Shown one piece after another: positions 583 through 42,094 of a DNA stretch of 64,000 nt. The notes beneath the pieces were generated by a model. It had not been told where the DNA came from. It did not search any database and was given only the letters and a program-made list of their open reading frames with translations. The position numbers and the translations under genes were made by a program. How positions within the stretch are numbered: position 1 is the stretch's first letter; each line of letters starts with the position of its first letter. Location of the stretch: NCBI GenBank assembly GCA_007376385.1, contig VMGC01000002.1:1-64000 (forward strand), in the 5' to 3' direction. This DNA comes from Parcubacteria group bacterium Gr01-1014_8 (GTDB lineage: Bacteria; Patescibacteriota; Minisyncoccia; Phycocordibacterales; UBA2100).

Positions 583-2247
583 ATGGCAAAAAAAGTGATT
601 TTCGATGCAGAGGTTCGCGGAGCCTTGAAACGCGGTGTTGACATCGTTGCTGGCGCCGTACGCGTCACGCTTGGTCCCCGCGGGCGTAACGTCGCTCTCG
701 ACCGCTCGTGGGGTTCTCCTACCATCACGAACGATGGTGTTTCTATCGCGAAAGAAATAACCCTCGCGGACAAATTTGAGAACATGGGCGCGGCCATCGT
801 CAAAGAAGTTGCGACAAAAACAAATGACAAAGCAGGAGATGGGACAACGACAGCCGTTGTTCTCATGCAGGCCATCGTGCATGAAGGCTTGAAGCGCACT
901 GCGCTCGGTGCGAATGCGATGATGGTCCGTCGTGGCATCGAAAGGGCGGCAAAAGATGCCGTCGAAGAACTTAAGAAAATGGCAAAACCAATAAAGGGTA
1001 AGAATGATATCCGCCAAGTCGCATCCATTTCCGCTGAATCAGAAGAACTTGGAATAAAGATAGCGGATGTCGTAGAAAAAGTCGGTAAAGATGGCGTCGT
1101 TACAGTCGAAGAATCGCAGTCTATCGGTATCGAAACTGATTATGTAGAAGGCCTCGAATTTGATAAAGGCTATGTCTCTGCGTACATGATAACCAATGCG
1201 GAACGCATGGAAGCGGAGGCGCGCGATGTGCCAATATTGATAACAGACAAGAAGATATCAACCATCAAAGAGATACTTCCGCTCTTGGAAAAACTTGCTC
1301 AATCAGGAAAGAAAGATCTCGTTGTCATCGCGGATGATGTAGACGGAGAAGCGCTTGCAACATTCGTCGTCAATAAACTTCGCGGCGCATTCAACATTCT
1401 CGCCGTTAAAGCACCGGGATATGGCGACAGAAAGAAAGATATGTTGCAGGACATCGCGATCACCGTCGGCGCGCAAGTCATCTCGGAAGATCTCGGAATT
1501 AAGTTGGAGACCGCGGACCTCTCGATGTTGGGGAGAGCGAATCGCGTTGTTGCGACGAAAGACTCCACAGTCATCGTTGGCGGGAAGGGAAAGAAGTCAG
1601 AGATCGAGGCGCGAGTCGCCTCACTGAGGAAGCAGTCGGAGAACATTGATTCGAAATTCGACAAAGAAAAGATCGAGGAGCGGATCGCAAAACTCACTGG
1701 CGGCGTAGCGGTTATTCGCGTGGGCGCTGCAACAGAAACTGAAATGAAATATTTGAAGGACAAGATAGAGGACGCGGTGAACGCTACGAAGGCAGCCATC
1801 GCCGAGGGTATTGTCCCTGGAGGAGGTTCTGCACTCGCAAAGGTCTCTGAAAAACTTGCACGAAAGATAAATCCGAAATCGCACGATGAGGAAACGATAG
1901 GGTATCGAATTCTTCTCACCGCGCTTTCTGCTCCGCTTCTTCAGATAGCGAAGAATTCCGGACGTGAAGATGGTCCGGTCATCCTGCAGGAAATAATCAA
2001 GAAAGGAGGAAACATCGGATTCAACGCCGCGAGCGAGTCTGTAGACGCTGAAATGGTGGACATGATAGAAGCTGGCATCATTGACCCGGTGAAAGTGACG
2101 CGAAGCTGCGTCGAGAACGCAGCGTCAGCTGCCGCAGTTCTTCTCACAACGGAGGCAGCGGTCGCTGATGAACCAGAAGAAAAGAAATCTTCTGCTGGCG
2201 GCGGTATGCCGGGCGGCATGGGAGGAATGGGTGGGGAGGACTACTAG
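583..2247 (+). CDS. groEL: chaperonin GroEL (Hsp60)
   Basis: 554-aa ORF with a canonical GroEL N-terminus ([17 protein letters not shown]) and a C-terminal GGM repeat tail ([15 protein letters not shown]). Confidence 0.95.
2212..2246 (+). repeat. 35-bp direct repeat, copy 1 (groEL 3' end; left flank of the IS200-like element)
   Basis: ggcggcatgggaggaatgggtggggaggactacta is identical to 3087..3121. Confidence 0.85.
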
Positions 2248-3121: not shown

Positions 3122-3147
3122 ACGGCAATATATCTTGAAGAAATATA

Positions 3148-3180: not shown

Positions 3181-3207
3181 CTGTATAAGAGGTGTTAGAA
3201 TTTGTGC

Positions 3208-3842: not shown

Positions 3843-6800
3843 GTGCATCGCACAAGCTCTCATACACAATGTTTGCTCGGTTCAACTGAAAGTGCAGGAT
3901 ACAATAGAGGCACATATCTCATGTCTGAAAAGACACACACGCCCCAGCATTTTTTTGGGCTCCTTTTGGTGCTCGTTTGTCTTGGTTTAATGTTAACGTT
4001 TGCGTTAAAGATCCCGTCGTCAAAAGCGCTCAGCGAGATTCCCGGCGATCCGAGCCCGGATTGCAAGGGGCCCTATTGTGTCAATAAGTCATTCAAAGGC
4101 AGCCCTTATCTCACAGCTGGTTGTGTTGAGCCTAAACAAGGGGAGACACCGACAAAAGACGGACTTATCGGTAAGAAATGTACTGTCACAAAAGATATTT
4201 CATGCACGGGAACTTGTATTGCCCCTCAACCTATTTGTGGTCACGCGAGTACATGTGATGGTAAGCCGGTAAAGAAAGCGGAAATTCCGAATGACCCGTG
4301 CGGATTAAGTCCTTGCCCTCCACCGCCGAACAATAATCAACAAGCCCCAAATAGTCCCGAAGAATCCGGGGGGCCACCTCCTTCGGAAGGAATGCCTCCT
4401 CCGCAATCCGGACTTGAACCTGATTTTTCGAAGTACGGAGAGTGGGGCGCGGAGCCACCGCCATCTGGAACACCTCCTTCTCCGGGGTCGGACTTCAAGT
4501 TCAGCGATTTTGGGGAATTAGGCAGCCTCCCTCCGCCACCAGATGCGCCCCCTTCTTCTGATGCTCCTCCGGGCAGATCTGGCTCAACTGGGTTTAATCC
4601 GCCGCCATCAGCTGGCGATATTAGCAGCGGTTTGGAGAATGTAGCAAAAGGCCTCGGCGACACGCTTTCAAAGATGGGACAAGATTTTATTCAAGCCGCA
4701 GGAGACGCTCTTAACAAAGGAAGAGAAACACTCGAAGACATCCTGCAAAGGCTTGCTGGTGCGGGGGATGGAACACCAGCTCCAACGCCAGATATTAAAA
4801 ACGAGATAGCAAAGAACGAAACAAAGGCAAGCCCAACACCCGCGGCAGAAAAAGGAATTGCTTCAACATACTGGCAACCGCAGAAACTTGCAGGTGGAGG
4901 ACAATTCAATCCAAACGCGATGACTGCGGCACATAAAACGCTTCCATTTGGGACACGTGTACGGGTTACTAATCTTAATAATGGAAGATCGGTCGAAGTG
5001 AAAATAAACGATCGAGGCCCTTATGTTAAGGGTCGCATAATCGACTTGTCGGATGCCGCGGGTAAGGCCATCGGGATCAATCGTTCAACTGCTCCAGTTA
5101 CAGTGGAGGTACTTGGCAAAGGCGCTGTTTCTTCAGGACCCTCGGGCGCGGCCTCGGGTTATCCGGTCGTTTCTCCCTCGGTCGGGCAAGGTTTAGGAGA
5201 AACCGAGCCGCCGTCATTCAACAACTCCACGTACGATGTTGCGCAAGGACTTGGTGAAAGTGAACCCCCATCGTTCAACAATTCCATGTATGATGTTGCG
5301 CAAGGTCTTGGAGAAACTTCGCCACCAGAATTCGGAAACATTGACTGGAGCCAGTACTCTTCGCAAGAGTTCGTAGGAACAGGACTCGGAGAAACCGAGC
5401 CGCCGTCATTCAACAACTCCACGTACGATGTTGCGCAGGGTCTCGGAGAAACGGAACCGCCAGCATTCGACGGTCCCGTAGAATCGCCACCGCTTGCTGA
5501 CGAGCAAGGTTTTATCGATTACGCGAATCAACTTGCAGACGAAACCTTTGCCGATACCATGGAAAAAGTACTCCAAGAGTGGACGGACGCGAAAGCATTT
5601 GCCGATGACATGGCAAAAGTTCTGCAAGAGTGGACTGAGACCAGAATGGCGGAAATGCAGGCAGCCGCTGAGGCTATGGCTGAGCAGTTGCGGGCATGGG
5701 AACAGGAGGCCAAGGACCTGTTGGCCAATATGGTCGCTCCAGAACCAGAAGAACCGCCTGTTGAAGGGATGGGTTTTGAGAAAGAAATTGAACTCGCAAA
5801 TAAAGTTGGTCAAGAAACAGAAGCGGCGCAAGCCGATAAAGCAGCAGCAGAACAGAAAGCTTCCGACGAAGCAGAACAGCAAAGGCGGGATGAACAGCAG
5901 AGGGCCGGAGAAGAATTACAGCGGCAGGCAGATGCGCAGGCCAAAGCGGAGGAACAGCAGCGAAGTGCAGAAGCGGAGCAAGAACGGCTAGATGAACAAC
6001 AGCGCGCAGGTGAAGAAATGCAACGACAGGAAGATGAAAGAGCTGCCGAGATAGAACGCCTCAAGAACGCAGACGCGGAAGATGCTTCCAAAATACCGGG
6101 CAAAGATGAAAAGATCGATTGGGGCAAATACGAGAAAGTTGACCAGTTTGATCAACAAGACAAGGAGTTAGGCGAGGAAATGAAGAGACAAGCTGACGCG
6201 AAAGCGGCAGAAGAAACGGCACGTGAGAAAAGTGCGGAAGCGGAGCGGCAAAGAAGCGCAGATGCAGAGCAAGAGCGATCGGGCGAACAAACAAGAGCAG
6301 GTGAAGAGTTAGAAAGACAAGCGGATGAGAAGGCACGGCAAGAAAAAGCAGCTGAAGAAGAACGTCAGCGACAGGACGAGATGAAGAGAGCAAGCGATGA
6401 AATGAAACGGCAGGCAGATACGTGGGCCGCGAAGGAAAAGAAATTATTCAAAGATACGACCGATGAACTTCGCGCGTGGGCGAAAGAGGACTGGGATAAA
6501 AACTACAAGGATGTGACGCCGGGTAAAACCGCGCCTGCACCGACACAGGGCAAAACTCCACCCGCAGGACCTCCTGCTAAAGCACCGCCAGCTGGTCCGC
6601 CGTCAGGTCCTCCGGGCGGAGGTACACCACCTCCAGGGGATGGAGGCCAGCCAGAAGGCGGCGGGGGCGGCATGGGAGAAATTCTTGGAAAAATCATGGA
6701 AATGTTGAAAGGGCTTCTTGGCATGGGAGGGGGCGGAGGAGGTGGAGGAGAAGAACAGCCAAGGCAACCAACTACGAACCCGTCCTCAACGAACCAACCA

Positions 6801-7103
6801 GGACCTATAGCGCCTCCTGCGAAAAAAGAACCGACAACAGCGAAACCAGTCGTTATCATGGTGGTGAATCCATCGAAGGTCGTCGAGGGCCATGATGCGC
6901 GCGTGTCATGGTCGAGCGTTCGCACACAAGAATGCGATGTTACAGACTCTGAAGGAAATACGATATCTACTGACGCAACCGATGGCACCGTGCTCATCGA
7001 AGACATGACAATAACAACAACGGTAACCATTACATGTTCAGCAGAAGGAAGAGACCCGATCACATCGGAACGGATCATTACCGTTGAGCCGTTCCCGATC
7101 TGA
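3843..7103 (+). CDS. giant secreted/membrane-anchored protein: N-terminal TM anchor, Cys-rich module, Pro-rich linkers, RlpA-like DPBB domain, tandem repeats, long E/Q/R/A coiled coil, C-terminal beta-sandwich-like domain
   Basis: 1086-aa ORF. The start is more likely about 3921 (MSEKTHT...FFGLLLVLVCLGLM). The DPBB region reads ASTYWQ...TAAHKTLPFGTRVRVTNLNNGRSVEVKINDRGPYVKGRIIDLSDAAGKAIG, which matches the RlpA family. The C-terminal approx. 80 aa (VSWSS..ECDV..TDG..EGRDPIT..ITVE) are shared with the next gene. Confidence 0.8.
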   Translation: MHRTSSHTQCLLGSTESAGYNRGTYLMSEKTHTPQHFFGLLLVLVCLGLMLTFALKIPSSKALSEIPGDPSPDCKGPYCVNKSFKGSPYLTAGCVEPKQGETPTKDGLIGKKCTVTKDISCTGTCIAPQPICGHASTCDGKPVKKAEIPNDPCGLSPCPPPPNNNQQAPNSPEESGGPPPSEGMPPPQSGLEPDFSKYGEWGAEPPPSGTPPSPGSDFKFSDFGELGSLPPPPDAPPSSDAPPGRSGSTGFNPPPSAGDISSGLENVAKGLGDTLSKMGQDFIQAAGDALNKGRETLEDILQRLAGAGDGTPAPTPDIKNEIAKNETKASPTPAAEKGIASTYWQPQKLAGGGQFNPNAMTAAHKTLPFGTRVRVTNLNNGRSVEVKINDRGPYVKGRIIDLSDAAGKAIGINRSTAPVTVEVLGKGAVSSGPSGAASGYPVVSPSVGQGLGETEPPSFNNSTYDVAQGLGESEPPSFNNSMYDVAQGLGETSPPEFGNIDWSQYSSQEFVGTGLGETEPPSFNNSTYDVAQGLGETEPPAFDGPVESPPLADEQGFIDYANQLADETFADTMEKVLQEWTDAKAFADDMAKVLQEWTETRMAEMQAAAEAMAEQLRAWEQEAKDLLANMVAPEPEEPPVEGMGFEKEIELANKVGQETEAAQADKAAAEQKASDEAEQQRRDEQQRAGEELQRQADAQAKAEEQQRSAEAEQERLDEQQRAGEEMQRQEDERAAEIERLKNADAEDASKIPGKDEKIDWGKYEKVDQFDQQDKELGEEMKRQADAKAAEETAREKSAEAERQRSADAEQERSGEQTRAGEELERQADEKARQEKAAEEERQRQDEMKRASDEMKRQADTWAAKEKKLFKDTTDELRAWAKEDWDKNYKDVTPGKTAPAPTQGKTPPAGPPAKAPPAGPPSGPPGGGTPPPGDGGQPEGGGGGMGEILGKIMEMLKGLLGMGGGGGGGGEEQPRQPTTNPSSTNQPGPIAPPAKKEPTTAKPVVIMVVNPSKVVEGHDARVSWSSVRTQECDVTDSEGNTISTDATDGTVLIEDMTITTTVTITCSAEGRDPITSERIITVEPFPI
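5185..5460 (+). repeat. intragenic tandem repeats (approx. 75-bp units encoding GLGETEPPSFNNSTYDVAQ)
   Basis: A 50-nt stretch is identical at about 5199-5250 and 5389-5440, with 3-4 repeat units. Confidence 0.8.
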
Positions 7104-7134
7104 GAACGAGAGCAGTCTTTGCACCGTTGCCAAC

Positions 7135-7151
7135 TTTTGAACAGTTGTTCG
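7135..7151 (+). promoter_or_regulatory. conserved near-palindromic motif TTTTGAACAGTTGTTCG upstream of the 826-aa paralog gene
   Basis: The identical 17-mer occurs at 9686..9702 upstream of the 2389-aa paralog. It lies about 33 bp upstream of the shared TATAAT. Confidence 0.45.
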
Positions 7152-7183
7152 CGCGCCGCACTCATTCGAGCGTTTATTAACTC

Positions 7184-7189
7184 TATAAT
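7184..7189 (+). promoter_or_regulatory. -10-like TATAAT box, 8 nt upstream of the ATG (possibly a leaderless or short-leader mRNA)
   Basis: ctcTATAATGATGAGTAATGCGAAACGCGC is shared 30/30 nt with the region upstream of 10031. Confidence 0.4.
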
Positions 7190-7197
7190 GATGAGTA

Positions 7198-9678
7198 ATG
7201 CGAAACGCGCGCGTCGCGGTTCCTTTGTTCGTAGCAACTATTTTGTGCTGCGCTCTCTTTGTTTTTGTACTTCTTTTCGCACAATCGAGTGAAAGTGCAA
7301 CGCCGCCGGCGGGTTCACCGGTGAATTGCGACGAACCGTACCGGACGTGTATAGCAGCGGCCGATCAAAAGTACGACGTACCGATGTCTACAACAGAAGC
7401 GGACAAGGCAGAGTGCCTAAACCGATGGAAGCTATGCATTACGAAAGACGCCGCATGCCAGTCTACGTTCAAAAGAAACACCGGGGGAAACTGCAGCACA
7501 AAACCGCAATGCAGGCATTGCAAGAACGTGATAACCGACAGCGAGGTGCGCTGCTGCTTTGAGCTGACGCATGGACCAGACGAAGAAAATTCGTGTGCAA
7601 CGAGTTTTGGCGGAAAATGCTATCACGCGGATAGAACATTGAGAAAGCCCCCTCCTTTTCTCGTAGGCTCAAACGATGTGGCGCGCATCATTTGTCCGGA
7701 CTGCATACGAATAGTGAATACCGATGGAAATGTTGTTGCCGTTCACCCGAGTACCCCCGCGCCGCCGAATTTCCAAAGTGTGGACAGCCCGCTCACTACA
7801 ATGGGCGATTTGGCTGCGAGAATTTCGGGCGAGAATGGATTGCCGCCCAACGAACTTCCCATGCAAATTGCACGAGAATACTTCGACTTCAAAAGTCTGA
7901 CTAGTGAGGGCGGATATCTTGACGTAAATACGGGCGAAGAGTATACGGATAGGGCAACAGATCTGGGAAAGACCTTACAGTTCCTGCAAGACAATGCGAC
8001 ATCACTTGACCCGCCAAAGCGTGAAGAGCCGCCTGATGATGGTGCAAATAAGGATACGCCTTGGGAAAAAGACGTCGGGTACAAGGCTGATGACACAAAA
8101 GCTAGCGAAGCGTTGGCGAAAGCGGCTGAACGCGAGCGAGCGGCGGAGCTTCAACGATGGAAAGAGCTCGGGGCCAAGGAAATAGAGGCGCAAAAAAGGG
8201 CAGAGGCCGATGAAGCCAAACGCCGGACAGAGCCGCCGTCTCTTTTGGAGCGCTCGAAGTATGACCTCGAGAAATTCCTGCGCACTGCAGGAATCAAGTC
8301 AACCCTCATTCCTCAAGGTGAGCCTGATGTACCGACGGTTCGTCCGATGTTTCCAACGTCAGCCGATGCTCCAGACCCGAACACAACCGCCGAATCGCGT
8401 TTCGCAGCAGTGCGAGATGCGGCGGAACAGTTTGATAAGTCTTCGAAGGAGCTTAGCGTGCTCCGTGCAGAACACGCAGATAATTATTATGATAAGGATT
8501 TTCGCGACCCGAGACTTCTGTATGCCGAAGAAGTAAATCGTGCCGACCGTGAAAGATTGGCTGCAGCGCTGGGAGCTGCGAAACAAGATCTCCCGCAACC
8601 GCTTGCGGAAAAGCTCGCGGCGCTTGAAAAGATGCACGATGATGCTCGAGCGCGGACAGAGGAAGTGAGAACAGGTTTCGAAAGAGCTACCGCAAATTTT
8701 CAAACGTGGGCAGAACAGAATGGCAAAACCACCCTGGGACATAAAGCAGATACTGATGCATTGTGGCATCGGGAAATACCAAAAGGCGCCGGCTCAAACA
8801 TATTTAACGATTGGTTTCCTGTTTGGATGCAAACGACACAAAGTCCGCAGCGAGAATATAGTGACGTGCGAACATATGACCGAGCGCAGGGGGAAATGTC
8901 CTCGGCAATTCAACGTGCGGAGACCGTCGAGCGTAATGCTGCGGCAGAGATACTTACTATCTTTGCTTCGGCTCCGCCGCCTCCCGTTGTAGCAGCAGCC
9001 GAGCCGAAGGCTTTAGAACCCACGGTGGTTATAGGAGCGGGACTGCCGACGGTTCTGCCATCGGGTCCGCCCCCCGCGCCAGATGATACAGCTGCTCCTC
9101 CTGTGCGACCGCCATCAGAGGACGGACCTGCAGGGCCTCCCTCTAAAACAACGCCGGGAGACGATCCTCCTCCGCCTTCTAAAGCGGCTCCTACGCCGCC
9201 CCCCGCACCCCCTCCGAACGGCCCAGGTCCTTTTCCGTTTCCGACCTACACTGACGGAAATGATAACGGTCAGCAAAACGGTGAAGAAAACAGCGGTGGC
9301 TTCGGTTCCGTTTTTGAGTACTTGAAAAAGGTGCTTGGTTTTGGTACTCCTCCTCAGAATAGTTCGCCTCCTCAACCTCCACCGACTGACCAGAAGACTG
9401 GTCCGGGTTCACAGCCTTACCTCGGTGCGCCGAAAGCAGTTGTCACCTTGATAGTAAGTCCAATAGTCGTTTCCGCTGGGCGTTCAGCGTATGTTTCGTG
9501 GTCAAGTATCAATACGAAAGAATGTGATGTGGGATCTGACGGAAAATTGCTTTCGGACAACAGCACGGACGGGATAGTCACCATCAAAAAGATAAAGACC
9601 TCGACAACTGTTCGCATCTCATGCGTGGTAGAAGGAAGGGACCCGATAACTGCAGAAAAAAAGATCACCGTCGAGTAA
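7198..9678 (+). CDS. secreted Cys-rich/Pro-rich surface protein (paralog family A) with C-terminal beta-sandwich-like domain
   Basis: 826-aa ORF. It has a signal peptide (VPLFVATILCCALFVFVLLFA). The N-terminal Cys-rich module is homologous to that of the 10031 gene. The C-terminal domain is homologous to the C-terminus of the 3843 gene. Confidence 0.8.
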   Translation: MRNARVAVPLFVATILCCALFVFVLLFAQSSESATPPAGSPVNCDEPYRTCIAAADQKYDVPMSTTEADKAECLNRWKLCITKDAACQSTFKRNTGGNCSTKPQCRHCKNVITDSEVRCCFELTHGPDEENSCATSFGGKCYHADRTLRKPPPFLVGSNDVARIICPDCIRIVNTDGNVVAVHPSTPAPPNFQSVDSPLTTMGDLAARISGENGLPPNELPMQIAREYFDFKSLTSEGGYLDVNTGEEYTDRATDLGKTLQFLQDNATSLDPPKREEPPDDGANKDTPWEKDVGYKADDTKASEALAKAAERERAAELQRWKELGAKEIEAQKRAEADEAKRRTEPPSLLERSKYDLEKFLRTAGIKSTLIPQGEPDVPTVRPMFPTSADAPDPNTTAESRFAAVRDAAEQFDKSSKELSVLRAEHADNYYDKDFRDPRLLYAEEVNRADRERLAAALGAAKQDLPQPLAEKLAALEKMHDDARARTEEVRTGFERATANFQTWAEQNGKTTLGHKADTDALWHREIPKGAGSNIFNDWFPVWMQTTQSPQREYSDVRTYDRAQGEMSSAIQRAETVERNAAAEILTIFASAPPPPVVAAAEPKALEPTVVIGAGLPTVLPSGPPPAPDDTAAPPVRPPSEDGPAGPPSKTTPGDDPPPPSKAAPTPPPAPPPNGPGPFPFPTYTDGNDNGQQNGEENSGGFGSVFEYLKKVLGFGTPPQNSSPPQPPPTDQKTGPGSQPYLGAPKAVVTLIVSPIVVSAGRSAYVSWSSINTKECDVGSDGKLLSDNSTDGIVTIKKIKTSTTVRISCVVEGRDPITAEKKITVE

Positions 9679-9685
9679 TTGCACG

Positions 9686-9702
9686 TTTTGAACAGTTGTT
9701 CG
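9686..9702 (+). promoter_or_regulatory. second copy of TTTTGAACAGTTGTTCG motif
   Basis: Identical to 7135..7151. Here it is separated from the TATAAT by the inserted 277-bp TIR element. Confidence 0.45.
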
Positions 9703-9734
9703 AATACAGGCCCCGTTTGAGACGGTATTCGCTC

Positions 9735-10021
9735 TATAACCCCGTGAGATAGTTACGCACTATTTTTAATGCGCGTCTTTATATATCGTTTGCCCCAAGC
9801 AGTTTTAAGATATTTTTCTCGAATGTGCGCGTCCTTAATCGAGGTGGATGCCTCGTAGTAAACAAGTTGCCACGGACCCCTATTTTTTGTTGAGAATACT
9901 TTGTTGCTGTTATGAAGATTGAATCTTCGGCGTAAATTATTCGTAGAGCCCACATAAAACTGCTTGGGGCCACGAATTACATACACATAGTACATGTACC
10001 TAATTATCTCACGGGGTATAA
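9735..10021 (-). mobile_element. TIR-bounded mini-element carrying only a GIY-YIG nuclease gene (TIR CCCCGTGAGATA / TATCTCACGGGG; 5-bp TSD TATAA)
   Basis: The left TIR core is at 9740..9751 and the right TIR core at 10005..10016. TATAA flanks both sides (9735..9739 and 10017..10021). The paralogous empty site at 7181..7210 contains a single TATAA. Confidence 0.6.
9753..9995 (-). CDS. GIY-YIG nuclease family protein (stand-alone URI domain, approx. 80 aa)
   Basis: MYYVYVIRGPKQFYVGSTNNLRRRFNLHN... shows the GIY-YIG signature (YVY..FYVG/YIG, R, H/N). It occupies almost the whole interior of the TIR element. The stop codon abuts the left TIR. Confidence 0.85.
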   Translation of the reverse strand: MYYVYVIRGPKQFYVGSTNNLRRRFNLHNSNKVFSTKNRGPWQLVYYEASTSIKDAHIREKYLKTAWGKRYIKTRIKNSA

Positions 10022-10030
10022 TGATGAGTA

Positions 10031-13000
10031 ATGCGAAACGCGCATGTCGCAGGTGTTTTGTTTGTAATTCTTGCAGCTACTATCTGCAGTGCTGCATTCA
10101 TAGCTCTCGGTTCATCATTTGTGCCTACTGCATCTGCACAAAGTGGACAGGGTAATTGCAAGACGCAATACGATGCGTGTATAAAGGCCGCGAATTCCGC
10201 TGCTGCGAAAGCACAGACCTCTGCGCAAGTACAACAGGCTGCGAAGGATAAAGCATCATGCATGCCGAAGTGGCGCACGTGCATGAACAAATGTAAGCAG
10301 CTTACGAAAGGTGCAGACGGTGCTTCGAGCTGTTCGACGGATAGTGAATGCAAAGGAAAACGCTGCAAGGATACCTATAACGATCTAACGAAAGAGAGAA
10401 AGTGTTGCGTAAATCTTTATGACCTCGGAAAAGAATCGCAAAATTCGTGCCCGAATGAAGTTACCTCTAGTGTAGGGCTGCGATGTTATGAAGATGCTGC
10501 GGCGCCTCATGACCCGACAAAAGGGGGAACGCCTGGGGGCACGCCATCTACGCCAGGCGGACAGCCGGAACAACCTTCGGGAGGAATGCCGCAAATTCCG
10601 CAACCGTCGCCGGGAGAAGGCTCACCGCCGAAAGAGCAACCCAAAGAAGAACCGACGCCAGAGCCGAAAAAGGAACCGACATTGTTTGAGAAATTCGCTC
10701 AGTATCTTGGAGGAGATACACCGAAGACAGATGATGCAAAATCACCGCTCGATTATTTCTTCAAGAAAGATGAGGTTGAGCTTGGTTCAACACCCGCTGA
10801 TACTTTAGGAAAGGATTTCCCCGATGCATCGGACAAATGGTGGAATGATGCTGTTGGGCAAAGCACATTCGGTGCGCCCGAAAATTCAGTAGTAACCACA
10901 GACCAGAGTAATTGGGAGCAATTCAAAGAACATATAGCAAATGGAGATATTGTCGCAGCGGGTGGAGATGTCATTGATGGCGCAAAAAATGTGCTTGGTC
11001 TAGGCGATGAAGTGGCTGCAGAGATTCCAGGCGATACAAAAACACTGACTGATGAAACTCCTGACGTGCCAAAAGAGGGACAACAATATGCTGAAGCAAA
11101 ACCCGGTGCCGCCCCGGAAAAACCGACGTCAGATTTAAGTAAAGAGGAGCAAAAGGCAATCACGGAAAAATCCCTGAAAGATACTGAAGCGAAGATCGCC
11201 GCTACCAACAAGGATCTTCAGAATCCCAATCTTGACGAAGCATCAAAAGAAGCACTTCGGGAAAATCTGAAGGACCTTCAATCGCAGCAAGCGGATCTTA
11301 AAAAGGAAATAAACGATCTCGCTAATCCTCCTGAGGCGATACGGAACAAAGCCATCATGGGTGAAGGTGCGCTAAGTGAACACCAACTGCCGTATGACGC
11401 CGAACCAGGGGGGAGAAAAGTATACGTTGAAACAGATGGACCGAACGGAAAGCATATCGTCGAAGTGGACTCGAAAACGGCGGGGACCGATGCCAATGGG
11501 AAGCCTACGACCCTGGGCGATATCGCCCAAGCAAATGGCGCCGGAAATTCGCCGACAAATCCGCTGCCGATGGATGCAGTGCGGTCAGCGGTGGGTGGAG
11601 ATGAAGGACTGAAGGCAATGACAACTCCTACTATAGAGAAGACAGGCGAGGCTCTTACATACAACCGGCCAGTCGGTCCTAATGATCAGGCAACTCTTGA
11701 TGTTAAAGTCGAAAAAAGTCCGGTCAGCAATTTATATGAAGTCAATCAAGATCCGCTGAAAGTCGCTTCGGAAGGGTATCAAGAGGGAGAGGGCAAAGTG
11801 GTGAACGAGGGCAAATTCCTTTTTGGTGAGGGAGCAAAACCACCACCCGCAGGGGAGCCACCTACAGCGGCGTCTCCGCCACCGCCTGCGGAATCTGAAA
11901 AAAGTGACGCATCAGTCGCACGCTCCCCGAATACGCCCGAAGAATATGCAAAAGCCGCCGAAGAAGCGATCAAGCGATCGATGGTAAATCTGGGGAATGG
12001 TTTTGCAAATGTCGTCGATGCCGCAAGAGAAGGAATTAGTAATGCTGCTGTTGAAGTTCAAAAATGGGCGCACGAGGCGAAACAAGCGGCAGCAGATGCA
12101 TACAATTATGTTGCCGGCACAATAGAAGATATACGTCCCGCAGGAAATCCTACAGACGTACAAGCGCCCTCCCCCGGGCCGGTGGCGCAGCAGCCGAGTC
12201 CATCGCCGGGCGATAATCCAGGCGGAGGCACTGTTGTACCTGATACACAAGGAACCATTCCTATAAAAGCGCCCACTGGTCCCGGAGATCAAAATCCTCC
12301 GGTTAAGTCTGGGGACGGATCGACTGATGGAGGAAAAACGGAACCAACGATTACTCCCACGGATAAACCTGGCAAAGACATAGACGCGCCTGTTCCTGAT
12401 CCGCAAGGGAAAACAAAACAACCGACAACGCCGAGTCCGGAAGGAAAGGAGCAGACGGTACCACAGCCTGCGCCGCCAAGCTCTCCTCCAAATCGGGGTT
12501 GGTTTAAAAGAATCGCCGATGCGCTCCGTGGTTTTCCGATTCCCGGTCCCTCACCTTCGCCGACAAATATCTCACCGTCCGTATTTCAACCGCAGCCACA
12601 AGGTCAAGATCAAAAGCAGGCCCCGCAGCCAACGCCTTCAGAAAAGAAAGGTCAACCGGAACCGGATCCGAAAGGGACCGCAAAAAGTAATTTTGCTCCG
12701 AAAACAAAAAATAACCTCCAGGAGTTTTTGGCAGATGCGCTCAAAAAATTCGCAGATGGAATTGCGAAGCGAACAGGTCAAGATCCTGGAGAAACTCCAG
12801 GAGGACAAGGTCCGAGCAAGACCGCGAAAGATAACGATCCGAATAAACCCCTTGGGAACAGCTTGGAGAATCCGAAGCAAGTGAAAGATGGAATTCCTGC
12901 GAAGAGCAATACCGGCGAAGCTGGAACCGGCAAAGGTCAGGAGGGAAAGCAGCAACAGCAGAAGGGAGCAAAAGACCAGGAAGGGCAGAAAAAAGGAGAC

Positions 13001-16000
13001 GATGGGAAGCAGGGAGTGCCATCTGGCACGCCAAGCAATACACCTGCGCCCCCTGACTTACCGCGACCGAATATGGTCGCGAAATTACAGGTACCGACTC
13101 CTGTAGCTTCGAATGACCCAAAGGGAAAAACCATCGAGGCTCAAAGCAAAGAGAATGTCCAAACACAGCCTGGCGATAGCGGGCAAGGGCAGGGACAGCC
13201 CAAAGGTGGAGGCAAATCTCTGCTTGAGAAACCGAGTTCTGAAAAAGTCGAAAACGCAACGCCGAGCCCGAGTCCTACCAGAGGTTTCCTTGCGAAGCTT
13301 CCAAATCCGCTTGTATCAATTCCAGGAAAAATAGTAGGCGTGAGTGCGCCTGACGGCGATGCAGTGCCAAGTCCGGCAGGCGATGTGATGCGAACGTCGG
13401 ATGGGCGGCTCAAAACACCGAGTATTTCTGGACGTTCATTGGAAGGACAGCCTGTCAAAGCCGTTGGAGATGCGAAGAAACTACTGCCGACTCTCATCTC
13501 GACGAGAGCTGAAGATGTGCGAGATTTTGTGAGAGGAAGCGGGGTCAGAACTCGGTTCGGTATCAAAGATTGTGCGGCAGCCCCTACTGGCTGGGTTTGT
13601 CAGAACTTAGGAGACATAGCGCAAAGGCAAGGATGTTCGCCTGGGGACCATTCGTGTTGGCAATCTGACGTTGCTGATGCGGAGGCATATTGGGCAAAGC
13701 TTCTCATGCAGCCAAATTACACGCGATGTCAGCCACTGACCGTGCAATGCATTATTAGCGGTCCTGATGGGAGAGGCAATTGGGTCGCCGATGATTCTGC
13801 ATGGAGACGTGCGCAAGGATTAGGCGGTACAGGCTCTAACGCTGACCATGTTGGCAGAGTCATCAGATTCATGGCCGAGAAAGGAGTAAATGTCCAGGGG
13901 AACACGCCTCTCGATCTGAATGATGCGAATGTGAGAAGGGCGTTGGCTTACGGTCAATCAAGAGCCGAACTTAGGGCAGGCGAGAGCGCATATGACGATA
14001 GCGTGATTGATACGGGTTATGAACGCGCTGTTGCGCGCGCTGGCGGAGCACCCCCGCCGCCAATTGTGCCGTCCACACCACCTGCGGCGATTCCGGTGCA
14101 ATCAACGCACGCGCAAGCTTTGCAAAAATATCAAGATGCATTGGCCTGCAAGGGCAATGAGTGTAGACAGCAGAAGATAGATGTTCGAAATCCCCAAGGT
14201 GTGTCGCCAGAGCTGGCGGAGCAAATAAAGCAGCGACATAGCACCGCTCCACAAAAACCTGGGTATGGTACGGAAGTGAACAAGGCGACTGTCATAGCCG
14301 ACCTTGCTGCGTGCGAGGCGATGGGGGGCGGCTGTGGCAGATTATCTTCGTCGGCCCGTTCGCCAGGACAGACGAGGCATGGTCCGGGAGATGCGATTGA
14401 CGTCACGTTCACCGACCCACAAACGCAAGGCACATATGCAGCGCTTTTCATGAACGGCGCCCATGCACTCGGGGCAACTCCTGGCATGGGTTTCAATACA
14501 GAATGCAGCACGGGTTGCATCGTACATGCAGACACGGTAGGCGCGAGTGCCGGACCTGGGGCAGCGAACGCGTGGGCCTATGGTCCTAACTGCGGAAGCG
14601 GAAGCAGCGACTGCATAAAAAATATAGTCGACCCACGGGTTCGTTCAATTGCGAATCTCGCGTATGCGGGGCAGCCGGTTCCTAATAACCTTGTTCCAGA
14701 ATCTATTACACCAGGGACTACGGTTCCAGGGGGGACACCCGCGAGTCAGGTTGTCCGTGGCCCACATGTTCCCGGTTCCGAGCCGGGCATTGTTCCGGGA
14801 AAGGAAGAAGCCAGCAGGTCGCCGGAGGAACAAAAGAAATTAGACGACGATGCGGCACGTGAAAAGCCAAGCCCCTCGGCCACAAAGTCTCCGCCTGGTC
14901 TCACTGGTGACGTTGCAAAAGACGCTGTAAATAAATTCTCACACGATCTTGGGCAAAGGGGATTTGTCTTTGGAAAGGACAGTAAGCTCCTCACGCCACA
15001 GGAAGCAGCAGAGCTATTCAAGAAAGGAGAAAAGCCGGATATCTATCTACCTCGCGACAAAGGTCCGAATCCATTTGCGAGCCCGGAGCAAAAAGCACAA
15101 TTTACGAAAGCTCCAAACGGGCAACATTATGAAAAATTCGAAGGGACTTTTGATGAGTATCGTCAGCGTCTGACGCAAGAATTAACAGCAGCCATTGAAA
15201 ATGCGATGCGTGACCAGCAGCTCAATTCGAAACCGGAGACGGAGAAACTTCGGGATGGAGGAAAACTTGTAACGAAGGGTGAGGGCCAGATACGCAATGT
15301 GTTTCGAGAAAAAGACGGAAAACTAAGTGACAAGCCTGTCGGTCAGGTGCGCGAGATAAGCAAAGAATTTGCGCAACTTCGAAAGGCAGTAGAACTGCAA
15401 GGCGACAAAGTGAAAGTGAAAGAAAAAAATGGACAGTTCAAAACAGAAGATGGAAGACGCGTCGAATTGCGTCCTGATACCGGCAAGGATGCGCCGCCGC
15501 CGTGCACTGATTTTACAAAATGTCATACGGGCGGAAAGATAGAGAATGGAAGATTTGTCGGAGCAGATGGTTCTAACATCGTGAATATACCGGGTGTTGG
15601 ACGCGTAAGATTTGAGCACAATCCATTCAGCCCGAATGCAGGAACGCAACGCGGAAATATGAGTGCGCTCGTCATCCATGAATTCAGAAACCCAGGCGGC
15701 GCAAGGAATGTTGATAGTACGGTGAGATGCCATCAGAACGGTTGCCGAGGAGGAGGCGTATATACGCAAGCGTATGTAAGCCAGCCCTATATTGCAGAGG
15801 ATGGAATGAAGGAAATACGCGTAGTTCAGCTCGGTTCGGCGTACGAGCGCAGTGGCCACGCGGGCTCGACACCGCTTGGCAGCCAGCCGGGACCCGGAAT
15901 AGAGAATGCGTGTCACGGAAGAGGAGATTGCAGTGATCCTCTGCAGATTGCGGCGAACGCTATTATGTATGACGCCTATCGTCAGCAATATCCGAATATG

Positions 16001-17200
16001 GCCGTGACGCATCACCAAGGGGATGAAGGTTTGCCTATTGCGCGTGCACTGTACGCACGCGTACAGGGCGGTTTGCAGGGTTCACTATCAGATGAGCCAG
16101 TCGCACTTTTCGCAGTATCGGAAAATGGAGATGCCGAGAAACTGGGCACCAGCATGAAGCCATCTGAACTTCCAGCGGCCGGCGGTACCGAATTCGAAAG
16201 TGTAGGGGACAATGGAAACCCAAATGGAGATGTCCGTATCGAACTTGATCCCATCAAGATAGGCACAGCAGACGTTCAGCCGACAATAGAAGGCGACAAA
16301 CTCGGTTTTGTCCCGACCTATACGCCGCCACCTCCTCCGCCCGCTCCACCGCCTCCTCCATCTTTTAGACAGAGAATGGCAGAAGCAGCGCGACGCCAAT
16401 TGGACAATTTGTCGAACGCGATGAAAAAAATGATGCAGCCGCCTAGCGGGGGCGGTGGAGGACAGCCGCAACCTCAACCGCAGCCACCTGTGCCACCTCC
16501 GCCTCCAATTCCACCAACATCGACAACGGGCGAGCCGAAAATAACCTGTACACCGACCGCTGCGATCGCGGATCAAAAAGTGAGAATTAAATGGTCGTGC
16601 CCTCCAACCCAGCTAGCAGTCGGCGTCGGCTTCGAGACCAAAGGTTTGGCGAATAGCGAAGTAGAAGTGCGCGTATCGAATGATAAGACACTATCGGAAG
16701 CGAAATATTCACTTCGCTGCGGAACGCTTCCGGAGCGTTCATGCACGGTGAAGATAGTCCGCCCGGCTATACTTATGATCGCCCAGCCTGGCGAAGTAGG
16801 ATCTGGGAAGACAACGAATCTAGCATGGGCGGCGACTCAAGTCCGAGTCTGCAAGATATACGACCCCGCATGCAAGGTTGTAGGTTCCGGTAATTCGGGT
16901 GGCAGAATAAAAACGAAAGCTCTGACTCGTTCAAGTACTTTCATGCTCGGCTGTGAGACAATTACAGGCGCAATGACCACGTCATCTGTTGTCGTAAAAG
17001 TGAAAGGAGATACGAAGGAACCACTTCCTGCGTGTCCGGCGGAAAGCATCCAACATGATGTTGTATTTACGACGAGCAGCTTGAACACTAAAAGTACTCC
17101 AACAGCCTACCCAGTACCATCTTCCAGCGGGTCCACAGAGCTGTGCAGTCCAAATCTTGATTTCGATTCTTTTATCAGATGTGTGATGGGTAAGAAGTAA
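10031..17200 (+). CDS. giant (2389 aa) secreted Cys-rich/Pro-rich surface protein (paralog family A) with two C-terminal beta-sandwich-like repeats
   Basis: It has a signal peptide. The N-terminal Cys-rich module is homologous to that of the 7198 gene. It contains long low-complexity P/G/Q/K-rich regions. A mid-region motif SPGQTRHGPGDAIDV resembles the HxxGxAxD zinc motif of peptidase M15/LAS enzymes (low confidence). The C-terminal domains show the VxxGxxxxxxW..C pattern. Confidence 0.85.
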   Translation: MRNAHVAGVLFVILAATICSAAFIALGSSFVPTASAQSGQGNCKTQYDACIKAANSAAAKAQTSAQVQQAAKDKASCMPKWRTCMNKCKQLTKGADGASSCSTDSECKGKRCKDTYNDLTKERKCCVNLYDLGKESQNSCPNEVTSSVGLRCYEDAAAPHDPTKGGTPGGTPSTPGGQPEQPSGGMPQIPQPSPGEGSPPKEQPKEEPTPEPKKEPTLFEKFAQYLGGDTPKTDDAKSPLDYFFKKDEVELGSTPADTLGKDFPDASDKWWNDAVGQSTFGAPENSVVTTDQSNWEQFKEHIANGDIVAAGGDVIDGAKNVLGLGDEVAAEIPGDTKTLTDETPDVPKEGQQYAEAKPGAAPEKPTSDLSKEEQKAITEKSLKDTEAKIAATNKDLQNPNLDEASKEALRENLKDLQSQQADLKKEINDLANPPEAIRNKAIMGEGALSEHQLPYDAEPGGRKVYVETDGPNGKHIVEVDSKTAGTDANGKPTTLGDIAQANGAGNSPTNPLPMDAVRSAVGGDEGLKAMTTPTIEKTGEALTYNRPVGPNDQATLDVKVEKSPVSNLYEVNQDPLKVASEGYQEGEGKVVNEGKFLFGEGAKPPPAGEPPTAASPPPPAESEKSDASVARSPNTPEEYAKAAEEAIKRSMVNLGNGFANVVDAAREGISNAAVEVQKWAHEAKQAAADAYNYVAGTIEDIRPAGNPTDVQAPSPGPVAQQPSPSPGDNPGGGTVVPDTQGTIPIKAPTGPGDQNPPVKSGDGSTDGGKTEPTITPTDKPGKDIDAPVPDPQGKTKQPTTPSPEGKEQTVPQPAPPSSPPNRGWFKRIADALRGFPIPGPSPSPTNISPSVFQPQPQGQDQKQAPQPTPSEKKGQPEPDPKGTAKSNFAPKTKNNLQEFLADALKKFADGIAKRTGQDPGETPGGQGPSKTAKDNDPNKPLGNSLENPKQVKDGIPAKSNTGEAGTGKGQEGKQQQQKGAKDQEGQKKGDDGKQGVPSGTPSNTPAPPDLPRPNMVAKLQVPTPVASNDPKGKTIEAQSKENVQTQPGDSGQGQGQPKGGGKSLLEKPSSEKVENATPSPSPTRGFLAKLPNPLVSIPGKIVGVSAPDGDAVPSPAGDVMRTSDGRLKTPSISGRSLEGQPVKAVGDAKKLLPTLISTRAEDVRDFVRGSGVRTRFGIKDCAAAPTGWVCQNLGDIAQRQGCSPGDHSCWQSDVADAEAYWAKLLMQPNYTRCQPLTVQCIISGPDGRGNWVADDSAWRRAQGLGGTGSNADHVGRVIRFMAEKGVNVQGNTPLDLNDANVRRALAYGQSRAELRAGESAYDDSVIDTGYERAVARAGGAPPPPIVPSTPPAAIPVQSTHAQALQKYQDALACKGNECRQQKIDVRNPQGVSPELAEQIKQRHSTAPQKPGYGTEVNKATVIADLAACEAMGGGCGRLSSSARSPGQTRHGPGDAIDVTFTDPQTQGTYAALFMNGAHALGATPGMGFNTECSTGCIVHADTVGASAGPGAANAWAYGPNCGSGSSDCIKNIVDPRVRSIANLAYAGQPVPNNLVPESITPGTTVPGGTPASQVVRGPHVPGSEPGIVPGKEEASRSPEEQKKLDDDAAREKPSPSATKSPPGLTGDVAKDAVNKFSHDLGQRGFVFGKDSKLLTPQEAAELFKKGEKPDIYLPRDKGPNPFASPEQKAQFTKAPNGQHYEKFEGTFDEYRQRLTQELTAAIENAMRDQQLNSKPETEKLRDGGKLVTKGEGQIRNVFREKDGKLSDKPVGQVREISKEFAQLRKAVELQGDKVKVKEKNGQFKTEDGRRVELRPDTGKDAPPPCTDFTKCHTGGKIENGRFVGADGSNIVNIPGVGRVRFEHNPFSPNAGTQRGNMSALVIHEFRNPGGARNVDSTVRCHQNGCRGGGVYTQAYVSQPYIAEDGMKEIRVVQLGSAYERSGHAGSTPLGSQPGPGIENACHGRGDCSDPLQIAANAIMYDAYRQQYPNMAVTHHQGDEGLPIARALYARVQGGLQGSLSDEPVALFAVSENGDAEKLGTSMKPSELPAAGGTEFESVGDNGNPNGDVRIELDPIKIGTADVQPTIEGDKLGFVPTYTPPPPPPAPPPPPSFRQRMAEAARRQLDNLSNAMKKMMQPPSGGGGGQPQPQPQPPVPPPPPIPPTSTTGEPKITCTPTAAIADQKVRIKWSCPPTQLAVGVGFETKGLANSEVEVRVSNDKTLSEAKYSLRCGTLPERSCTVKIVRPAILMIAQPGEVGSGKTTNLAWAATQVRVCKIYDPACKVVGSGNSGGRIKTKALTRSSTFMLGCETITGAMTTSSVVVKVKGDTKEPLPACPAESIQHDVVFTTSSLNTKSTPTAYPVPSSSGSTELCSPNLDFDSFIRCVMGKK

Positions 17201-17210
17201 TATCAGATGT

Positions 17211-17720: not shown

Positions 17721-17747
17721 ACCAGTCGAAGCGTATACTCTCCACAT

Positions 17748-18308
17748 ATGACACTTATCATCACACTTGGCGCAGCTGCGGTTTTGGTTCTTTGGGTTAT
17801 TTATGCATATAACCGACTTATTCAACTTACTAATCGCGGCGAGGAAGCGTGGTCGGATATCGACGTTCAATTGAAGCGCCGTTACGACCTCATTCCGAAC
17901 CTTGTGGAAGCAGTGAAAGGTTACATGACGCACGAAGCAGGAACTTTGCAGAAAGTGACCGAAGCCCGCACGAAAGCAATGGGCGCGCAGTCGGTTGGTG
18001 ACCACGCGGAAGCGGAAAATATGTTGACTGGCGCATTGAAGTCTTTGTTCGCAGTTGCGGAGAGTTACCCGGACTTGAAGGCGAATACGAACTTTGTTGA
18101 ATTACAACGAGAGCTGTCGGATACAGAAAATAAAATTCAAGCGGCTCGCAGGTTCTACAATTCTGTCGTGCAAGACCTTCAGAACGCACTTGAGTCATTC
18201 CCATCGAATATCATAGCCTCTTCATTTGGTTTCAAGACACGAGAATTCTTCACATTGTCGGAATCAGAGGCGGCTGCAGCAAAAGAGCCTGTGAAAGTTA
18301 GTTTTTAG
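17748..18308 (+). CDS. lemA: LemA family protein
   Basis: 186-aa ORF with an N-terminal TM segment and a conserved LemA core (YNRLIQLTN...RRYDLIPNLVE...RRFYN). Confidence 0.85.
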   Translation: MTLIITLGAAAVLVLWVIYAYNRLIQLTNRGEEAWSDIDVQLKRRYDLIPNLVEAVKGYMTHEAGTLQKVTEARTKAMGAQSVGDHAEAENMLTGALKSLFAVAESYPDLKANTNFVELQRELSDTENKIQAARRFYNSVVQDLQNALESFPSNIIASSFGFKTREFFTLSESEAAAAKEPVKVSF

Positions 18309-42086: not shown

Positions 42087-42094
42087 CTTGTCCA

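Follow-up and report, generated by a model that had tools for sequence, protein, structure and literature searches.

The groEL-lemA slot and its three large genes

The window, by which we mean the whole 64-kb stretch of DNA analysed, comes from Parcubacteria bacterium Gr01-1014_8. An initial annotation had supposed a small-genome bacterium, and this is confirmed: both the GenBank source and the encoded GroEL, which is 78-91% identical to that of Kaiserbacteria/Paceibacteria MAGs, identify a small-genome CPR bacterium. Between groEL and lemA lies a variable slot, spanning 15.5 kb in this genome, that holds three ORFs (3843..7103, 7198..9678 and 10031..17200), all intact and all on the + strand (Table 1). 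The ORFs are those originally proposed, and they correspond to deposited GenBank proteins. Since they run without interruption and agree exactly with the gene calls on deposit, the frameshift fusion that had been raised as a possible objection does not apply. For gene 1 the ORF stands, but not its GTG start at 3843; the public annotation uses the ATG at 3921, just downstream of which lies a TM helix.

Table 1. Features of the groEL-lemA region, with positions numbered along the window
Feature	Position	Strand	Evidence or remarks
groEL, left border of variable slot	583..2247	+	Pfam
IS200-like Y1 transposase gene	2319-3026		directly upstream of array
Gene 1	3921..7103	+	1060 aa from ATG 3921; ORF opens at GTG 3843; TSC86410.1, 'rare lipoprotein A' in GenBank
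Gene 1 signal/anchor helix FFGLLLVLVCLGLMLTFAL	3951..4007	+	only segment of the protein with Kyte-Doolittle >1.8
Gene 1 Cys-rich N-module	4056..4286	+	type differs from genes 2/3; 43% identical to N-terminus of L003 slot protein
RlpA-family double-psi beta-barrel (putative lytic transglycosylase domain)	4851..5126	+	Pfam DPBB_1 8e-21; TIGR00413 3e-30
Five tandem repeats (QGLGETEPPSFNNSTYDVA)	5189..5471	+	repeat analysis; 57-nt (19-aa) period, one unit 26 aa
Two 17-aa repeats (FADxMxKVLQEWT)	5540..5638	+	~90% DNA identity to segment of L003 slot gene
Gene 1 E/Q/R/A-rich spacer, presumably helical, candidate coiled coil	5760..6542	+	read from translation
Gene 1 C-terminal Ig-like domain	6837..7088	+	52% identical to gene 2 domain; HMM match; gene 2 homologue modelled as beta-sandwich
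Intergenic segment, TATAAT box and first gene 2 codons	7135..7233	+	second copy ahead of gene 3
Gene 2	7198..9678	+	826 aa, TSC86411.1; signal/anchor, Cys-rich N-module, long helices, P-rich linker, Ig-like domain
Gene 2 Cys-rich N-module	7327..7626	+	12 Cys aligned with gene 3; model pLDDT 25-45
Gene 2 C-terminal Ig-like beta-sandwich	9430..9675	+	7 strands, pLDDT 90-96 (model)
Copy of intergenic segment 7135-7188	9686..9739	+	70% identical
Copy of promoter and start segment	10017..10066	+	27 nt TATAATGATGAGTAATGCGAAACGCGC identical to gene 2
Gene 3	10031..17200	+	2389 aa, TSC86413.1
Gene 3 Cys-rich N-module	10154..10492	+	paralogous to gene 2 N-module
~1000-aa P/G/Q/K/T/E-rich low-complexity spacer	10493..13480	+	few small, possibly folded islands; translation, hydrophobicity profile
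'Domain X', Cys-rich, aa 1180-1340	13568..14050	+	no homologue match covers it
LAS/M15-like putative metallopeptidase domain, aa 1355-1557	14093..14701	+	RH-x6-D and IVHAD invariant in 4 homologues
Alpha/beta domain, aa ~1626-1819	14906..15487	+	common to giant proteins P0005 and P0006
Amidase_2/PGRP-fold domain, putative N-acetylmuramoyl-L-alanine amidase, aa ~1860-2020	15608..16090	+	predicted fold
Small beta domain after amidase, aa ~2024-2099	16100..16327	+	model
Two tandem beta domains	16526..17005	+	second (aa 2242-2325) homologous to gene 1/2 Ig-like domain; first a divergent relative
Gene 3 C-terminal tail ELCSPNLDFDSFIRCVMGKK	17138..17197	+	motif C-x-P-x(5-7)-[FY]-[IV]-x-C; common to L003 and L060 slot proteins and P0005
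lemA, right border of variable slot	17748..18308	+	followed by Avd-like and M48 genes
Avd-like 23S-IVP protein	18335-18694		Pfam
M48 peptidase (htpX-like)	18732-19637		

Each protein was expected to begin with a signal or anchor segment, and hydropathy analysis agrees, giving one N-terminal hydrophobic segment per protein and zero elsewhere (Kyte-Doolittle >1.8); a canonical cleavage site, ASA|Q, is present in gene 3. The search for a sortase motif that had been called for found no LPXTG-like motif near any C-terminus of the three proteins, and no C-terminal hydrophobic segment, which rules out sortase anchoring.

The content of the slot differs in every related genome, being either empty or occupied by other mosaic giants, and the distance between groEL and lemA in these relatives can be as small as ~0.06 kb or reach at least 8 kb (0.4 kb in L004 and 0.14 kb in L011). 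Independent MAGs have related giants in this syntenic slot, and the relatives' slot proteins carry PG_binding_1 (1e-18, 2e-8) and DPBB_1 domains. The giants are not bound to this slot, as the related proteins P0004 and P0005 sit elsewhere in their genomes. The flanking groEL, lemA and htpX-like M48 genes would fit a role in maintaining the cell's own envelope just as well as one against a host wall. The Avd-like neighbour is a cue for a diversity-generating retroelement, which is ruled out by the absence of a reverse transcriptase among the 30 larger ORFs scanned with Pfam and of any TR/VR-like repeat pair in positions 1-30000.

Modular architecture of the three proteins

Judged by their sequences and predicted structures, the three proteins are modular mosaics in which three different putative peptidoglycan-cutting modules are carried on long flexible spacers. 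Whole proteins and 10 excised fragments were searched against Pfam, NCBIfam, PHROGs and PDB sequences, and the gene 1 DPBB was the sole match; the HMM searches suggested at the outset thus returned DPBB_1 in gene 1 but no further Pfam domain in any of the three. The assignment of that domain to the RlpA family is upheld. Residues 337-428 score 74.5 bits against DPBB_1 (cut-off 28.8) and 105.7 bits against TIGR00413 (cut-off 82.15), with the RlpA motifs intact. Against the RlpA equivalog model NF007953 gene 1 reaches 85 bits, below the cut-off of 201, and Pfam gives no SPOR domain at E<=0.1. The five tandem repeats described downstream of the barrel are present, but their unit length of 25 aa had to be revised (Table 1).

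An N-terminal module is common to genes 2 and 3, with ~31-33% identity over ~150 aa (BLASTP 8e-15). At least 10 conserved Cys had been claimed for it, and we find 12 aligned in the mature part. Moreover, genes 2 and 3 are, to judge from their nucleotide sequences, products of a tandem duplication that took in the promoter, because both the promoter and the 5′ end are present in duplicate between them (Table 1).

A second module is found at the C-terminus, where genes 1 and 2 are 52% identical over 80 aa. In gene 3 the second copy (aa 2242-2325) is ~18-20% identical to these domains (BLASTP 2e-6, 2e-3), and the first (aa 2166-2243), placed by alignment only, is 13% identical to the gene 1 domain and retains just the Trp and the second Cys. 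The consensus VSWSS..ECDV..EGRDPIT, initially extended to all of these copies, describes genes 1 and 2 but not gene 3. Structure prediction, also proposed in the initial annotation, settled one of the two shared modules: the AlphaFold model of gene 2 left the Cys-rich N-module (pLDDT 25-45) and the helical middle unresolved, but gave residues 745-826 as a two-sheet sandwich of 7 strands at pLDDT 90-96. In Foldseek this region matched SoxYZ, Fc receptors and titin Ig as well as an FN3-like module, with prob 1.0 and E between 9e-4 and 1e-2. The terminal domain had been called unassignable, and by sequence it remains so, with no Pfam match (Big, PKD, FN3 etc.) at E<=10 and no meaningful match of its alignment profile to PDB sequences. 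By its modelled fold, however, it is an ordinary Ig-like beta-sandwich, and the early caution that the shared modules might prove to be ordinary known domains is borne out in this one case.

Candidate hydrolase domains of gene 3

The gene 3 model has a mean pLDDT of 75.7. For 'domain X' (aa 1180-1340) no homologue was found in the cluster-representative search or with Pfam on the excised fragment. In the fold searches phage endolysins gave the best matches, and several PGRPs also appeared. Residues ~1860-2020 are predicted to adopt the Amidase_2 alpha/beta fold. The alignment of this domain shows an invariant His, GxGxE and His...Glu-Gly; the H of IHEF, the E of GPGIE and the H of THH fall, at the level of the alignment, in the expected places. 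The canonical third Zn ligand (Cys/Asp ~8 residues past the second His) is not evident, and an invariant Glu at +4 would have to replace it. Neither the isolated gene 3 fragment nor 12 homologues matched Pfam Amidase_2 at E<=10, the profile of the domain returned nothing meaningful from PDB sequences, and the hhalign comparison with T7 lysozyme was not significant (prob 0.09).

The LAS-like domain has RH-GPGDAI-D and IVH-A-D, which are invariant in gene 3, P0001, P0003 and P0004 and are in register with YH-TKGQAM-D and FVH-I-D of E. coli MepK. The hhalign comparison with MepK was not significant (E 0.23), no Peptidase_M15 profile in Pfam or NCBIfam matched the domain, and its own profile found nothing meaningful among PDB sequences. 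On sequence comparison, the amidase-like and LAS-like domains are two families absent from Pfam, NCBIfam and PDB. In both families the residues proposed for catalysis and metal binding do not vary, even among members only 20-50% identical. The modules also recur in other combinations: P0001 joins a DPBB-like stretch (BLAST only), a LAS-like domain and an Ig-like domain in one polypeptide, and P0006 has a weak DPBB_1 match and an amidase-like domain. The proteins had been read from the start as possibly cell-wall-targeting, and the Amidase_2-fold and LAS/M15-like domains of gene 3, together with PG_binding_1 and DPBB in the relatives' slot proteins, strengthen that reading.

Proposed function and comparison with known systems

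Taken together, these data lead us to favour, with moderate confidence, the interpretation that the array encodes tandem, partly paralogous envelope proteins, Sec-exported and either N-terminally tethered or cleaved, that together form a peptidoglycan-degrading toolkit. The Amidase_2-type domain of gene 3 would remove stem peptides from the glycan, its LAS/M15-type metallopeptidase would cleave within these peptides or within cross-links, and the RlpA-type lytic transglycosylase of gene 1 would act on the peptide-free ('denuded') glycan left by the amidase. RlpA is known to need denuded glycans and to work in tandem with amidases (PMC6895207). The spacers, of hundreds to a thousand residues and probably disordered or helical, would lie between a membrane-near disulfide-rich N-module and the distal Ig-like domain, and given this length and placement the enzymes could act tens of nanometres from the exporting membrane. 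Gene 2, in which no enzyme domain was detected with Pfam, in excised fragments or in the model, would be the same chassis with no recognisable enzyme, and perhaps serves as a scaffold or as a partner in binding. Because related genomes have either nothing or something else in the slot, we regard the proteins as accessory and fast-evolving, not core autolysins, and therefore favour a foreign (host) wall over the cell's own as substrate. From this variability and the architecture of the proteins, a host cell wall is a plausible target.

The strongest competing explanation, which we consider unlikely but worth serious attention, is that genes 1-3 are housekeeping autolysins that remodel the cell's own wall, for example in septum splitting and daughter-cell separation, with spacers that merely span a thick wall or S-layer. 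Amidase and RlpA form a classical septal pair in Proteobacteria (PMC6895207), the neighbours groEL, lemA and M48 are housekeeping genes with envelope and stress functions, genes for MurJ, FtsZ, FtsA and a Mur ligase occur within the same window, and no host-interaction machinery was seen beside the array. However, close relatives such as L004 and L011 have an empty slot or wholly different proteins in it, and a 1000-aa spacer far exceeds the thickness of a wall. Moreover, all three proteins are singletons at 90% clustering among 15 billion sequences, and 1.84 billion cluster representatives include just 15 relatives of the enzymatic region of gene 3, which would be unexpected of essential division enzymes.

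We give distinctly less credence to the proteins being adhesins or surface fibrils, in which degenerate, non-catalytic hydrolase-like folds just bind peptidoglycan and the whole polypeptides serve as attachment fibres. E. coli RlpA is catalytically inactive, and a DPBB domain is therefore no proof of activity; many PGRPs, several of which are among the fold matches, are likewise non-catalytic binders. The chassis has repeats and probable coiled coils as well as Ig-like domains at its tip, no enzyme module was detected in gene 2, and an attachment role has been suggested for giant membrane proteins of CPR bacteria (PMC8080830). Against this, the invariance of the candidate catalytic and metal residues in both gene 3 families at such low overall identity, and the intact RlpA motifs of gene 1, argue for retained catalysis. 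Lastly, it is very improbable that the array is a mis-assembly, a frameshift fusion or foreign DNA such as phage or mobile-element cargo (tail lysins, for instance): a transposase gene does lie directly upstream, phage endolysins head the fold matches and two PHROGs are matched by the DPBB of gene 1, but the ORFs are uninterrupted as deposited on a 200-kb contig, the GC content of the array is uniform with its flanks, related giants occupy the same slot in independent MAGs, and a prophage or mobile-element origin is ruled out by the absence of phage structural, integrase and conjugation genes from the 64 kb and of any tblastn match to the LAS-like domain among 50,697 phage genomes.

The toolkit interpretation can be taken further, although we do so tentatively and think the extension rather doubtful. 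The groEL-lemA slot of Kaiserbacteria-like Parcubacteria might be a dedicated diversification site for undescribed host-wall-breaching 'tethered murein hydrolases', in which a conserved chassis would be combined with swappable lytic cargo, including two unrecognised hydrolase families, and cargo and tip would set the host range. The chassis would comprise the signal peptide, disulfide-rich N-module, very long spacer and Ig-like tip, sometimes with a C-x-P...C tail.

To our knowledge, almost nothing is known of physical host interaction and envelope management in Parcubacteria, a very large uncultured radiation. The locus offers expressible candidates for three different putative peptidoglycan-cleaving activities in one array, and the slot is a simple genomic marker by which the equivalent fast-evolving proteins of relatives can be found. 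Should the enzymes act on foreign walls, the locus would open a way into the host specificity of CPR bacteria; the amidase-like family would, in addition, provide an annotation for a set of orphan proteins from other bacteria. If only the cell's own wall is cut, the finding shrinks to an unusually elaborate autolysin set.

Among known systems, gene 1 resembles proteobacterial RlpA in having an RlpA-family DPBB above the TIGR00413 and Pfam cut-offs and in the amidase-like domain encoded nearby in gene 3, which fits the amidase-then-RlpA order on denuded glycans. It differs in having neither a SPOR domain nor an evident lipobox, in its 1060 aa with Cys-rich N-module, tandem repeats, 250-aa charged and presumably helical spacer and Ig-like C-terminus, and in coming from a monoderm-like CPR bacterium. 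In contrast to the Amidase_2/PGRP amidases (T7 lysozyme, XlyA, PlyG, LytA, AmpD), the gene 3 domain has no sequence similarity detectable by Pfam, PDB or hhalign searches, shows no third metal ligand at the canonical position and sits inside a 2389-aa protein; its closest sequence relatives form a Pfam-less family that also includes stand-alone proteins of 230-530 aa. The LAS metallopeptidases of family M15 (E. coli MepK/YcbK, the L-Ala-D-Glu peptidases of phage T5, Ply500 and LysB4, and the Streptomyces Zn DD-peptidase) are also among the closest known systems.

Gram-positive autolysins and conjugation hydrolases (staphylococcal Atl, PrgK-type T4SS) unite several lytic modules in one exported, N-terminally anchored polypeptide, and the proteins described here similarly combine different putative peptidoglycan-cleaving modules. 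They lack repeat-type domains for wall binding (LysM, SH3b, GW, CW_binding) and neighbouring T4SS genes, and differ further in their far longer spacers and their distinct Cys-rich N- and Ig-like C-modules. Giant CPR surface proteins, as in Vampirococcus, have been proposed to act in host contact or attachment (PMC8080830), and giant Omnitrophota genes have been implicated in cell-wall degradation (bioRxiv 10.1101/2023.11.21.568195). These too are very large proteins tethered to the membrane, and they come from bacteria with small genomes and a host-dependent or predatory way of life. By described domain content they are set apart, with WD40, PKD, integrin and fibronectin there and DPBB, LAS-like and Amidase_2-like domains here, and by size, at over 10 kaa compared with 0.8-2.4 kaa. 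Set beside these systems, the locus is a variant of modular cell-wall hydrolases, interesting and not revolutionary.

Three exported ORFs in a variable chromosomal slot

The window is chromosomal, encoding groEL, RNR, murJ, lepA, leuS, tsaD, ftsZ, ftsA, a Mur ligase and seven tRNAs, and its GroEL shows 78-91% identity to those of Kaiserbacteria/Paceibacteria MAGs. The three adjoining giant ORFs of the initial annotation (genes 1-3) were recovered with exactly the same boundaries, and the base composition of the array is uniform with that of its flanks. Exact protein sequences are deposited for all three from a 200-kb source contig (TSC86410.1, TSC86411.1 and TSC86413.1 for genes 1, 2 and 3), which excludes fusion of the ORFs by frameshifts. 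TSC86410.1, annotated as 'rare lipoprotein A', is 1060 aa long and therefore gene 1 starts at ATG 3921 and not GTG 3843. As had been claimed for the signal or anchor segments, each protein carries a single hydrophobic segment, at its N-terminus, with no second one anywhere in the three proteins. The signal-peptidase site of gene 3 is canonical (ASA|Q), and the sortase motif LPXTG is absent from all three.

The array sits between groEL and lemA-M48, a pairing kept in dozens of Paceibacteria. In relatives, groEL and lemA lie as little as 56 bp and as much as 8 kb or more apart, versus 15.5 kb here. Large gaps in relatives hold one or two giant ORFs, each with a signal segment followed by a Cys-rich module at its start; the same Ig-like domain closes most of them, and their middles are mutually unrelated. 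PG_binding_1 was detected in two of these slot ORFs (1e-18 and 2e-8) and a weak DPBB_1 match in one. Two relatives of gene 3 (P0004 and P0005) are encoded at other loci of their genomes, showing that the family is not limited to this slot.

No phage, conjugation, sortase or reverse-transcriptase genes occur among the window ORFs scanned. Y1 transposase genes lie at varying positions near groEL-lemA-M48 of relatives and may help to rearrange the slot. An Avd-like neighbour made us consider a DGR, for which there is no evidence since no reverse transcriptase was found among the ORFs scanned and no TR/VR repeat pair in 1-30000.

Features of the array, its flanks and related loci (window coordinates unless a related locus, L, or gene 3 residues are named; P, protein relatives of gene 3)
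Feature	Position	Remarks
Gene 1	3843..7103 (+)	
Gene 2	7198..9678 (+)	
Gene 3	10031..17200 (+)	
IS200-like Y1 transposase gene	2319-3026	directly 3' of groEL
Perfect 16-bp GC-rich hairpin	3147-3181	after Y1 transposase gene
204-aa ORF	3202-3816	upstream of gene 1; Glu-rich, helical, possible signal sequence, no family
105-nt segment	5535-5639; L003 16810-16914	17-aa repeat FADxMxKVLQEWT; about 90% DNA identity
Domain X, Cys-rich	13568-14050	gene 3 aa 1180-1340; upstream of LAS-like domain
LAS-like domain	gene 3 aa 1355-1557	matched by P0001, P0003, P0004 (41-49% identity)
Region containing amidase-like domain	gene 3 aa 1581-2130	matched by P0005, P0006 (about 30% identity)
Amidase-like core	gene 3 aa about 1873-2040	matched by ten short proteins, 227-529 aa (29-35% identity)
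Terminal tail motif	17138-17197; L003 ORF ending 19995; L060 ORFs ending 12048, 16392	C-terminus of gene 3; also P0005 C-terminus
169-aa ORF	17211-17720	starts 10 nt past gene 3 stop; weak Gmad2 Ig-like match (E 0.0024)
23S-rRNA-IVP / Avd-like four-helix-bundle protein	18335-18694	between lemA and M48 peptidase; same position in L004, L006
Direct repeat x3, roughly 50-80 nt	26830-27182	GC-rich hairpins; intergenic, between ribonucleotide reductase and TPR protein genes
TATAAT-like boxes	7184-7200; 10017-10033; 17197-17213; 17733-17750; 42080-42097; others	
Y1 transposase genes of relatives	L003 11720-12415; L025 3844-4518; L040 10950-11621	
Slot ORFs of relatives		L001 (P0001) 1637 aa; L003 1635 aa; L005 1572 aa; L006 832 aa; L008 2274 aa; L013 725 + 448 aa; L060 1048 + 1426 aa

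Hydrolase-type domains and Ig-like termini

The RlpA-family double-psi beta-barrel proposed for gene 1 was confirmed at aa 337-428 (DPBB_1, 8e-21; TIGR00413, 105.7 bits against a cut-off of 82.15), with no SPOR domain in that protein. The rest of genes 1-3 gave no Pfam, NCBIfam, PHROGs or PDB-sequence match, and neither did fragments cut from it and searched at E<=10. An exhaustive phmmer search of 1.84 billion representatives with gene 3 aa 1150-2130 returned 15 relatives besides gene 3, none with a Pfam match in the parts shared with it. Domain X had no homologue among the 1.84 billion representative proteins. Gene 3 aa 1340-2130 was modelled with AlphaFold2, the sequences of the phmmer relatives serving as input alignment, and the model reached a mean pLDDT of 75.7 (80-97 in the block aa 1349-1560). 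The single polypeptide P0001 has a DPBB-like stretch together with both the LAS-like and the Ig-like domain, and in P0006 a weak DPBB_1 match accompanies the amidase-like domain; therefore, modules divided here between genes 1 and 3 co-occur elsewhere.

The amidase-like core also occurs in stand-alone Arg-rich proteins on short metagenome contigs (P0007-P0016; e.g. L084 540-1790). Having a conserved N-terminal region (C..L.C.L.LP...GW.P.GR.W.SP) and lacking Pfam annotation, they make up a family without annotation that is separate from the giant proteins.

In the gene 2 model the C-terminal domain is the sole part resolved (seven strands, pLDDT 90-96), its Cys-rich N-module remaining at 25-45. 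The C-terminal domain, initially called unassignable, indeed has no sequence match, but its fold matches generic Ig-like sandwiches in the PDB (SoxYZ, Fc receptors, an FN3-like module and titin).

Shared modules and tandem duplication

BLASTP among the three proteins showed that the C-terminal domains of genes 1 and 2 share 52% identity over 80 aa. The consensus proposed for all three proteins (VSWSS..ECDV..EGRDPIT) holds for these two and fails in gene 3, whose second C-terminal domain is only distantly related (about 18-20% identity, E 2e-6 and 2e-3), whilst its first is 13% identical to that of gene 1 and keeps only the Trp and one Cys. The N-terminal module common to genes 2 and 3 was borne out (about 31-33% identity over about 150 aa, 8e-15), with 12 cysteines aligned in the mature part where at least 10 had been claimed; that of gene 1 is Cys-rich and of its own, distinct type. 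The tandem repeats of gene 1, described as 25 aa, have a measured period of 57 nt (19 aa).

Genes 2 and 3 share an identical 27-nt stretch, TATAATGATGAGTAATGCGAAACGCGC, which extends from the -10 box (8 nt ahead of the ATG) past the start codon into coding sequence, and a 54-nt upstream intergenic segment. At the nucleotide level, these mark the two genes as products of tandem duplication, promoter included.

In many genes a TATAAT-like box precedes the ATG by 12-15 nt and there is no Shine-Dalgarno sequence, a pattern which suggests mRNAs with no leader or a very short one. Gene 3 and the ABC transporter gene at 42095 have the motif TATCTCACGGGGTATAMT upstream in common. Around the 105-nt segment the flanks of gene 1 and L003 are not alignable, which points either to recombination or to the repeat being strongly constrained. 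Some slot proteins end, after an S/T/P-rich linker, in C-x-P-x(5-7)-[FY]-[IV]-x-C, which matches no known family and is absent in genes 1 and 2; this tail may form a disulfide loop or serve as a signal for sorting or anchoring.

Proposed role and relation to known systems

Taken together, the array encodes three exported mosaic proteins with three domains of peptidoglycan-hydrolase type, long spacers that are helical or of low complexity, and Ig-like C-termini, in a variable accessory slot. RlpA needs glycan strands from which the stem peptides have been removed, and acts in tandem with amidases (PMC6895207). Here, the putative amidase of gene 3 would denude the glycan, which the RlpA domain of gene 1 would then cleave, and the LAS-like peptidase of gene 3 would cut stems or cross-links; the N-terminus would hold the proteins at the cell, the spacers giving the enzymes outward reach. 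It is possible that the hydrolase-like modules are binding-only and non-catalytic. We consider housekeeping autolysis somewhat less likely than an accessory role, probably directed at a host, because close relatives lack these proteins or carry entirely different ones and genes 1-3 are singletons at 90% clustering; this is the weakest step of the argument.

Modular exported peptidoglycan hydrolases and giant surface proteins of CPR bacteria are both of a known kind (PMC8080830; bioRxiv 10.1101/2023.11.21.568195). New are the particular chassis of the array proteins, two hydrolase-like sequence families missed by current profile libraries, the combination of predicted amidase, LAS peptidase and RlpA domains, and the finding that the groEL-lemA interval is a variable slot where such proteins are encoded.
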